42,725 nucleotides of DNA, from the IMG/VR virus record IMGVR_UViG_2737471827_000006, positions 1 through 42,725 of that record. One strand, 5' to 3'. This DNA comes from a virus (taxonomy: Duplodnaviria > Heunggongvirae > Uroviricota > Caudoviricetes). A program made the translations under genes and the position numbers. The stretch's first letter is position 1, and each line of letters begins with the position of its first letter. Positions 40,567-41,376 of this stretch are shown piece after piece. The notes beneath the pieces are model-generated. The model saw only the letters and a list, made by a program, of their open reading frames with translations. It was not told where the DNA came from and searched no databases.

Positions 40567-41001
40567 ATGAATCTGAAATATTTTTCTCCATCAGAAAATG
40601 CGTTTTATGCCGGGGAGCTTAAGGAAAGCTATATTGCTGCAGACTCATGGCCTTCTGATGCCTTGGAGGTTGACGAAAGTCTTTATCTTGAGTTTATCGA
40701 TGAGCCGCCAGCAGGTAAGTATCGTGGAGTGGATGATGCAGGTATGCCCTGCTGGCTTGAAATTCCTCCACCCACCGCAGAGGAAATGGCATCGAATGCA
40801 GAGAATATGAGACAGCAGCTCATTGATGAGGCAAATGTTTATATAAACAAACGTCAGTGGCCGGGAAAAGCAGCGATAGGCCGTTTAAAGGCGGATGAAC
40901 TGGAACGATATAACCTTTGGCTGGATTACCTGGATGCGCTGGAAGTAGTAGACACCTCCAGCGCGCCAAACATTAACTGGCCTGATCCTCCGGATGCGTA
41001 G
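40567..41001 (+). CDS. Tail fibre assembly protein (Tfa)
   Basis: 144 aa; C-terminal ...[31 protein letters not shown] is the hallmark Tfa ending. Confidence 0.85.
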
Positions 41002-41170
41002 GCCATACGGGTTTTGCTGTATCGACACGCATTAGCAAGACCCGATATTTCTTCCATTCGGCCAGAGCGACGGTTTCCTCATCCGTCGCGATACCAACAT
41101 CAACTGCATCCTGCCGCCAGGCTATCTCAGCGTCAGCAATAGCGCGTAAACTGCTGGGATAACAGCCCAA
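40973..41170 (-). pseudogene. Inverted 5'-truncated tail fibre assembly gene fragment
   Basis: Minus-strand translation ...[25 protein letters not shown] is a second Tfa C-terminus, convergent with and overlapping the intact tfa by about 29 nt; upstream part is missing. Confidence 0.5.
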
Positions 41171-41376
41171 TGGAACGCTTCTTCAGGAGTCTGAAGAACG
41201 AATGGATGCCGGTGGTGGGTTACGTAAGCTTCAGCGAGGCAGCTCACGCCATAACGGACTATATCGTTGGATATTACAGCGCACTAAGACCGCACGAATA
41301 TAACGGTGGGTTACCCCCAAACGAATCGGAAAATCGATACTGGAAAAACTCTAACTCGGTGGCCAGTTTTTGTTGA
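41170..41376 (+). mobile_element. IS3-family transposase C-terminal remnant
   Basis: 68-codon [62 protein letters not shown] resembles the C-terminus of IS3-family OrfB; no upstream transposase sequence. Confidence 0.6.

Follow-up and report, generated by a model that had tools for sequence, protein, structure and literature searches.

The window, by which we mean the whole 42,725-nucleotide (nt) stretch of viral DNA analyzed here (IMG/VR record IMGVR_UViG_2737471827_000006), carries a tail fiber gene at positions 39849 to 40565 of the plus strand. Its 238-amino-acid (aa) product matches the Gp53-like_C domain (Pfam PF21882; E = 4e-12) over residues 147 to 238, and the gene divides into a constant part, Sc (39849 to 40173), and a variable receptor-binding part, Sv (40200 to 40565). 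The following gene, tfa (40567 to 41001, plus strand), encodes an intact 144-aa tail fiber assembly protein (chaperone). The match of this protein to Caudo_TAP (PF02413; E = 3.1e-31) spans profile positions 3 to 130 of 131 and scores 108.7 bits against a gathering cutoff of 22.1, which identifies it as a full-length member of the family. The 3' part of tfa is ∼72% identical at the DNA level to tfaP of prophage e14. The window thus holds one complete Sv-tfa cassette (40200 to 41001). An antisense open reading frame (ORF) of 217 aa (39809 to 40462, minus strand), which by our account lies wholly inside the tail fiber gene, is most likely a spurious frame.

A preliminary description of this DNA had proposed that a second Tfa C terminus, encoded on the opposite strand, overlaps the 3' end of the intact tfa and that this inverted copy lacks its 5' part and runs into a 68-codon fragment of an IS3-family transposase. 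Profile searches bear out each of these points. The 65-aa antisense ORF at 40973 to 41170 (minus strand) matches Caudo_TAP at profile positions 74 to 131 of 131 only (E = 1.5e-16; 61.1 bits), and the two convergent genes overlap by 29 nt (40973 to 41001). The tfa-derived DNA, here called tfa' (40973 to 41147, minus strand), is 84% identical in nucleotides and 87% identical in amino acids to the C terminus of the 140-aa Tfa of the P2-like phage S164 from residue ∼88 onward. Homology to the S164 gene stops at 41143, and the tfa-derived DNA ends at ∼41143 to 41147. It corresponds to the 3' ∼56 to 58 codons of a second, inverted chaperone gene and lacks ∼85 N-terminal codons as well as a start codon of its own. 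The TTG start and the first ∼9 codons (MGCYPSSLR) of the 65-aa antisense ORF, by contrast, are the antisense of insertion sequence DNA. Judged by its sequence, tfa' is a truncated pseudogene that belongs to Caudo_TAP by descent. In an identical copy carried by Escherichia coli PigCaeca_2, RefSeq annotates two incomplete pseudogenes, one of them as an incomplete tail fiber assembly protein. The same 29-nt overlap joins tfaP and tfaE in e14, yfdK and tfaS in CPS-53, and the tfa pairs of S51, F1267, and PigCaeca_2, in keeping with the likeness to the center of an invertible tail fiber segment that the preliminary description had drawn.

The transposase fragment could be named, and the point of its truncation located, by comparison with IS911. 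Positions 41142 to 41384 (plus strand) are 98.8% identical (240 of 243 nt) to nt 1008 to 1250 of a 1,250-bp IS911 copy of phage SfII (L002 1126 to 2375, annotated as IS911 ORF A/B; the aligned part is L002 2133 to 2375), our reference for the element, which is not the ISfinder type sequence. Identity to a copy of ISEc52 is 94.3%. The terminal 27 nt of the remnant show no difference from the right end of the SfII element, and the right inverted repeat, ending at 41384, is intact. With the SfII copy as the reference and membership defined as at least 95% nucleotide identity plus a terminal inverted repeat, the remnant belongs to IS911. The 68-aa ORF within it (41170 to 41376, plus strand) matches the integrase core C termini rve_3 and rve_2 of Pfam; what remains of orfB amounts to its C-terminal ∼75 codons, beginning 7 codons upstream of the ATG at 41170 and ending with the stop codon at 41374 to 41376. 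A complete IS911 has two ends, orfA, orfB with the frameshift, and a 3-bp target duplication. Compared with this 1,250-bp IS3-family element of Shigella, the remnant shares the last 243 nt, the right repeat, and the orfB C terminus but is without orfA, the frameshift region, the catalytic core, and the left end, and it is unable to transpose because these parts are missing. Nucleotides 1 to ∼1007 have been deleted, with the break inside orfB, and no other IS911 DNA occurs in the window.

A side-by-side view of the window and IS911 places the joint between tfa' and the remnant at 41142 to 41147. The motif GCGCG (41142 to 41146) matches IS911 and could equally belong to tfa', making it a possible 5-nt microhomology at the joint. 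A deletion that starts within an insertion sequence is not a classical transposase-mediated adjacent deletion. Both stubs look like pseudogene debris to which we ascribe no function, with the exception that the first 29 nt of tfa' double as the last 9 codons and the stop codon of tfa. A promoter and terminator scan of positions 39700 to 41700 gave counts no higher than those in shuffled sequence and hence no support for expression of either stub.

Upstream of the intact chaperone gene, the tail fiber gene contains a single Pin/Gin-type 26-bp crossover site, CTCTCGAAAACCTTGGTTTAGGAGAT (40174 to 40199, plus strand), which begins at codon 109 of 238, in the motif ALENLGLG. It agrees with the site of e14 stfP (CTCTCGAAAACCTTGGTTTGGGAGAA; L005 3779 to 3804) at 24 of 26 positions, and no such match arose in 100 shuffles. 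The right half-site, GGTTTAGGAGAT, differs from the e14 consensus, GGTTTGGGAGAA, at 2 of 12 positions, and binding of an invertase to it is only putative. In the K-12 sequence, the inverted partner adjoining pinE reads TTCTCCCAAACCAACGTTTATGAAAA; the e14 inverted repeats have been given as TTGGTTTGGGAGAAGG and its complement (PMC12529663). The site in the window overlaps a 77-nt conserved box (40122 to 40198, plus strand) that encodes 25 residues and was recognized by sequence identity: 96% to e14 stfP (L005 3727 to 3803), 98.7% to H10407, and 93.5% to yfdL' of the K-12 prophage CPS-53. This box, which we regard as the left-hand recombination box, is common to otherwise unrelated tail fiber genes.

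The preliminary description had envisaged inverted repeats resembling gix or cix around the tfa genes. One site of that type is present, as just described, but the pair is not, its partner being gone. The window has one AAACCNNGGTTT core in total and no second; no inverted half-site was found near 40174 to 40199 or in the interval between tfa' and intS; and an inverted-repeat search of 39000 to 42725 returned short chance-level matches only and no partner for the site. The invertase is missing as well, since a tblastn search of the whole window with PinE gave only a 7-residue chance match (E = 9.7); in relatives, pin occupies precisely the place taken here by the IS911 stub. The Fis-dependent recombinational enhancer normally lies inside the invertase gene and, because that gene is absent, has presumably been lost along with it.

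In switches such as e14 P, Mu G, and P1 C, recombination by a serine invertase between a pair of inverted 26-bp sites changes which Sv and chaperone cassette is fused to the constant shaft. The Mu G and P1 C segments, served by Gin and Cin, combine a constant fiber with alternative Sv and U cassettes, have convergent U and U' genes in the center, and adjoin the invertase gene. Outside the chaperone C terminus the similarity of the window to Mu and P1 is distant, and the likeness is drawn from established knowledge of those phages, not from sequence comparison; the P1-like phage vB_EcoM-813R1 has a 75%-identical Tfa C terminus in its C segment. The P segment of e14 was reportedly described by Plasterk and van de Putte in 1985 and by Mehta et al. 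in 2004. Ordered as stfP-tfaP, tfaE-stfE', and pinE in K-12, it resembles the window in the 77-nt box, the crossover site, and the chaperone overlap, and its fiber tip is likewise of the gp53-like type. Unlike the window, in which one site, a single cassette, and the stub of another survive and the invertase is missing, e14 has retained pinE along with its two sites and two cassettes and remains able to invert. The e14 segment is a known invertible tail fiber switch (PMC4272514; PMC12529663). Measured against an active segment of the Din family (Gin/Cin/Pin/Hin), the window retains the crossover site at the junction of the constant and variable fiber parts and lacks an invertase, a pair of inverted sites, and two convergent complete cassettes.

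Prophages with the intact segment supply the missing parts. The dusA prophage of the enterotoxigenic E. coli (ETEC) strain H10407 and the prophage of KTa005 each combine pin with a pair of inverted sites and a pair of convergent Sv-tfa cassettes. In H10407 the order is the fiber gene site (L017 4670 to 4695), tfa on the plus strand, tfa' and Sv' on the minus strand, the inverted site (L017 6550 to 6575), and pin (L017 6635 to 7198). These two segments share the box, the site, the convergent cassettes, and the pin 3' flank with the window but differ in being complete and presumably active, in their YmfQ-type baseplate and Sc context, and in having another integrase. Among 80 IMG/VR loci with relatives of this Tfa, a convergent tfa pair occurs in 70, and a Pin homolog lies within the fetched flanks of 61, being near full length in 47 of these. 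The two closest informative relatives of the Tfa, at loci L020 (91% aa identity) and L022 (82%), are encoded directly beside pin.

The same comparison identified the spacer to the right of the IS911 remnant (41385 to 41567) as the 3' flank of the invertase gene. From 41385 onward, the window matches H10407 from L017 7247 (96.6% identity) and KTa005 from L016 7247 (94.4% identity), both of which start 49 nt past the pin stop codon. The spacer also matches E2348/69 from L003 5683, S51 from L004 5626, and PEC389 and phage HK633 from window position 41388. Because the right end of the insertion sequence abuts the native pin 3' flank, IS911 had, on our reading, inserted just downstream of pin. The insertion point falls within the hairpin CCGCAGC-CACGTCGTATGCAAGAACGT-GCTGCGG (window 41385 to 41411; L003 5674 to 5710; L017 7238 to 7275), the left arm of which the window lacks. 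Homology to many unrelated phages, HK633 and PEC389 among them, starts no more than ∼10 to 15 nt from this point, and the hairpin thus appears to mark a recurrent module junction.

On this sequence evidence we are confident that the convergent tfa and IS911 region is the frozen half of a Pin/Gin-type (Din family) invertible tail fiber segment. The suggestion of the preliminary description that a host range inversion segment had decayed here, with loss of the alternate fiber gene and the invertase, is upheld by the surviving site, the absence of both Sv' and any PinE homolog from the window, and the pin 3' flank beside the insertion sequence. The comparison with intact prophages for which it called points the same way, since H10407, KTa005, and most of the 80 IMG/VR loci carry the segment together with an invertase. 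As far as the gene content indicates, the switch is locked, with one intact fiber gene and chaperone gene still expressible, and this pair would be the sole host range specificity that the prophage can express. Prophage decay of this sort is well known and ordinary. The value of the result lies mostly in annotation: three small features are explained as pseudogene debris, and one real cis element, the orphan crossover site, is added.

The following order of events and deletion mechanism are offered as a reconstruction. The ancestral order would have been Sc, the crossover site, Sv and tfa on one strand, tfa' and Sv' on the other, the second inverted site, pin, and the terminator hairpin, and inversion would have determined which of two receptor-binding tips, both paired with a chaperone of their own, was joined to the constant shaft. 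IS911 would then have inserted into the hairpin ∼49 to 57 nt downstream of pin, giving a state in which the sequence GCCGCAGC(CAC) ran into the left end of IS911 and the right end of the element ran into CACGTCGTATGC. A later deletion of ∼2.3 kb (scaled on H10407) would have joined IS911 nt ∼1008 to codon ∼88 of tfa', taking with it the 5' two-thirds of tfa', Sv', the second site, pin, ∼48 nt of spacer, and nt 1 to 1007 of IS911. It was probably an illegitimate recombination across the GCGCG microhomology. What would have been left over is a fiber and chaperone in the expressed orientation, an orphan site, a tfa' stub, and an IS911 stub. Exact junction patterns, used to look for the tfa'/IS911 joint or for an ancestor with full-length IS911 inserted at this point, gave 0 hits in genome and metagenome contigs; among viral contigs the exact junction pattern occurred in L015 only, as a copy of the PigCaeca_2 type, and among 5,426 complete E. 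coli genomes the joint occurred in PigCaeca_2 only. Because no relative was found with a full-length IS911 at the insertion point beside an intact segment, that intermediate is hypothetical.

The wider context of the decay is given by sister prophages. The window is mosaic in structure and related to the prophage at argW in E2348/69, which combines a lambdoid early region with a contractile tail. The prophages of S51, T28R, F1267, and E2348/69 match the window at 98 to 99% identity from 39849 to 40190 to 40198 and then continue into unrelated Sv-tfa cassettes; because the homology of all four stops there, the crossover site is a module boundary. Homology resumes at 41385 in S51 and E2348/69, at 41388 in PEC389 and phage HK633, at 41495 in T28R and ETEC4089, and at 41573 in F1267. 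Stubs of tfa' occur in the sisters as well (81 nt in S51 and 129 nt in F1267). In E2348/69, a pseudogene annotated as helix-turn-helix between tfa and the spacer is the C terminus of Pin (PinE residues 123 to 180; 69% identity; E = 1e-22), and since this sister keeps a pin stub, argW prophages once had pin at this position. With the E2348/69 stub and its flank as the query, many genomes were found to have a full-length recombinase gene at 99.7% identity. The prophages of S51, F1267, and T28R are without pin and without any insertion sequence; loss of the invertase is thus recurrent in the argW lineage and could in principle have preceded the IS911 event.

E2348/69 also has a hybrid crossover site at L003 4375 to 4400, in which a normal left half and core are followed by an unrelated right half (CTCTCGAAAACCTTGG|TATTAAAAAC). 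With its truncated fiber gene and the pin C-terminal stub (L003 5437 to 5634), this sister shows the same switch decaying independently and in another way.

The nearest described equivalent, by sequence and layout, is the tfaS'/yfdK/yfdL' arrangement of CPS-53 (KpLE1) in K-12, which belongs to the same argW/IntS prophage family (its intS is 95.5% identical to that of the window). Like the window, CPS-53 has a tfa' pseudogene convergent with an intact tfa, an orphan site in the fiber gene, and no invertase. Unlike the window, it has a 303-nt tfaS' stub followed by yodE and the gtr (yfdGHI) O-antigen glucosylation operon, with no IS911 remnant, and its fiber gene, yfdL, is a pseudogene, whereas the fiber and tfa genes of the window are intact. 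The interval between the fiber module and intS holds gtr genes in K-12 and an acyltransferase gene plus ISEc52 in NCTC9967. With its pin stub, varied tfa' stubs, and gtr or acyltransferase genes, the region between the tail fiber module and intS is a hot spot of decay and exchange in argW prophages.

Three other accounts of the locus were weighed. The antisense Tfa-like frame might be a coincidence of sequence, a caveat that the preliminary description had itself raised with regard to homologous prophages, and the insertion sequence fragment unrelated junk. It is true that the 65-aa ORF starts at a TTG inside insertion sequence DNA and that its tfa-derived part has no start codon. Chance is nevertheless refuted by the Caudo_TAP match, which is confined to the C-terminal third of the profile and lies mostly outside tfa (just 29 of ∼175 nt of tfa' overlap it), by the 87% aa identity to the S164 Tfa C terminus, and by the recurrence of the convergent layout in e14, CPS-53, H10407, KTa005, and 70 of 80 viral loci. 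We give this account practically no credence. Almost as improbable is a segment that still works as a switch, flipped in trans by the invertase of another prophage in the host. One good site survives, and Pin-family invertases do act in trans, PinQ, PinR, and PinE each being able to invert the e14 P segment (PMC12529663). Inversion requires two inverted sites, however, and the window has one, with no inverted half-site between tfa' and intS and with Sv' absent. A separate reading is that the orphan site may remain a substrate for Pin-family invertases of other prophages in the same cell, leading to cassette exchange or chromosomal inversion. We think this doubtful, and the sequence data lend it no specific support. 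If it were true, Sv-tfa cassettes could pass from prophage to prophage by site-specific capture or exchange, or large chromosomal inversions could arise between orphan sites, and the homology breaks at the site and the transfer of a cassette between argW and dusA prophages would reflect invertase-mediated, not purely homologous, exchange.

The remaining account accepts the frozen half segment and differs in where it decayed: an already truncated cassette (site, Sv, tfa, tfa' stub, and IS911 stub) would have been imported from another prophage. A block of 1,351 nt (40122 to 41472), whose left limit is the 77-nt box, recurs at 99.4% identity in the PigCaeca_2 prophage, which is integrated at dusA and is of the Mu tail type, and in the IMG/VR contig L015. 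Within 40168 to 41455 (∼1.29 kb) there are 2 mismatches only relative to PigCaeca_2, and the six mismatches at the edges are lineage-specific variants of the conserved boxes on either side, PigCaeca_2 reading like H10407 on the right and the window like PEC389 and S51. Since a near-identical decayed cassette sits in an unrelated dusA prophage, the joint arose once and the cassette then moved between the two prophage families, by recombination whose left end fell in or near the 77-nt box or the site and whose right end fell in the spacer downstream of pin. Near-identity of this kind in an unrelated prophage family is a tidy case of modular tail fiber exchange via short conserved boxes, a long-established idea. 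Import would also fit the quite different Sv-tfa cassettes of the sister argW prophages, which imply frequent cassette replacement. Against this, both prophage families possess the spacer downstream of pin natively, so that the block gives no sign of the direction of transfer, and the pin stub of E2348/69 places pin at this position in argW prophages as well. The 88 nt shared with PigCaeca_2 at 41385 to 41472 had been considered as a sign of a move out of an IntS-type prophage; this was rejected when the same native pin 3' flank was found in the dusA-type segments of H10407 and KTa005. We lean toward decay of the segment in this prophage or a direct ancestor and regard import as a serious possibility with somewhat under an even chance. 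Import would alter the place of the decay and not the nature of the feature.

To the right of the spacer, an IntS-type (P4-family) integrase gene (41568 to 42725, minus strand) encodes 385 aa with the Pfam domains Phage_integrase, Phage_int_M, and Arm-DNA-bind_3, and the window stops at its start codon. It is 96 to 98% identical to intS of argW prophages. In chromosomal relatives, the tRNA-Arg gene argW lies ∼160 nt beyond the integrase start and hence outside the window. The insertion sequence scar does not mark the right boundary of the prophage, as had been supposed, because intS lies between. An alternative boundary at ∼41400 to 41520, taken from the attP annotations of HK633 and HK620, was rejected, as all chromosomal relatives have the order tail fiber, spacer, intS, and tRNA-Arg. 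This gene order leaves no room between tfa' and intS for a second site and an invertase.

Several observations were made elsewhere in the window. ARAGORN found no tRNA genes in the whole window; the E2348/69 sister has tRNA-Thr and tRNA-Asn genes upstream of its lysis genes, and the matching interval of the window (∼16810 to 17043) is not conserved. At the left end, a second P4-type tyrosine integrase gene (415 to 1677, minus strand; 420 aa; Arm-DNA-bind_3, Phage_int_M, and Phage_integrase) lies beyond the stretch (∼1847 to 2449) aligned to the torI end of the prophage of E2348/69, which suggests that the far attachment site harbors another integrative element in tandem. In the immunity region, of the genes at 7164 to 8165 and 8332 to 9036 (both minus strand), one encodes a ClpP-like protein with an SDH-type serine protease domain that scores 29.6 bits, below the Pfam cutoff of 31.3, and adjoins the gene for an S24-peptidase (LexA/CI-type) repressor. 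Between the tail and baseplate genes, an insert of ∼1.5 kb (35280 to 36824) has no megablast match in the E2348/69 sister. It carries two ORFs on the plus strand, one of 192 aa without a Pfam match (35829 to 36407) and one for a YafO toxin family protein (36409 to 36825; PF13957; E = 4e-17), which makes it a possible toxin-antitoxin moron within the structural operon.
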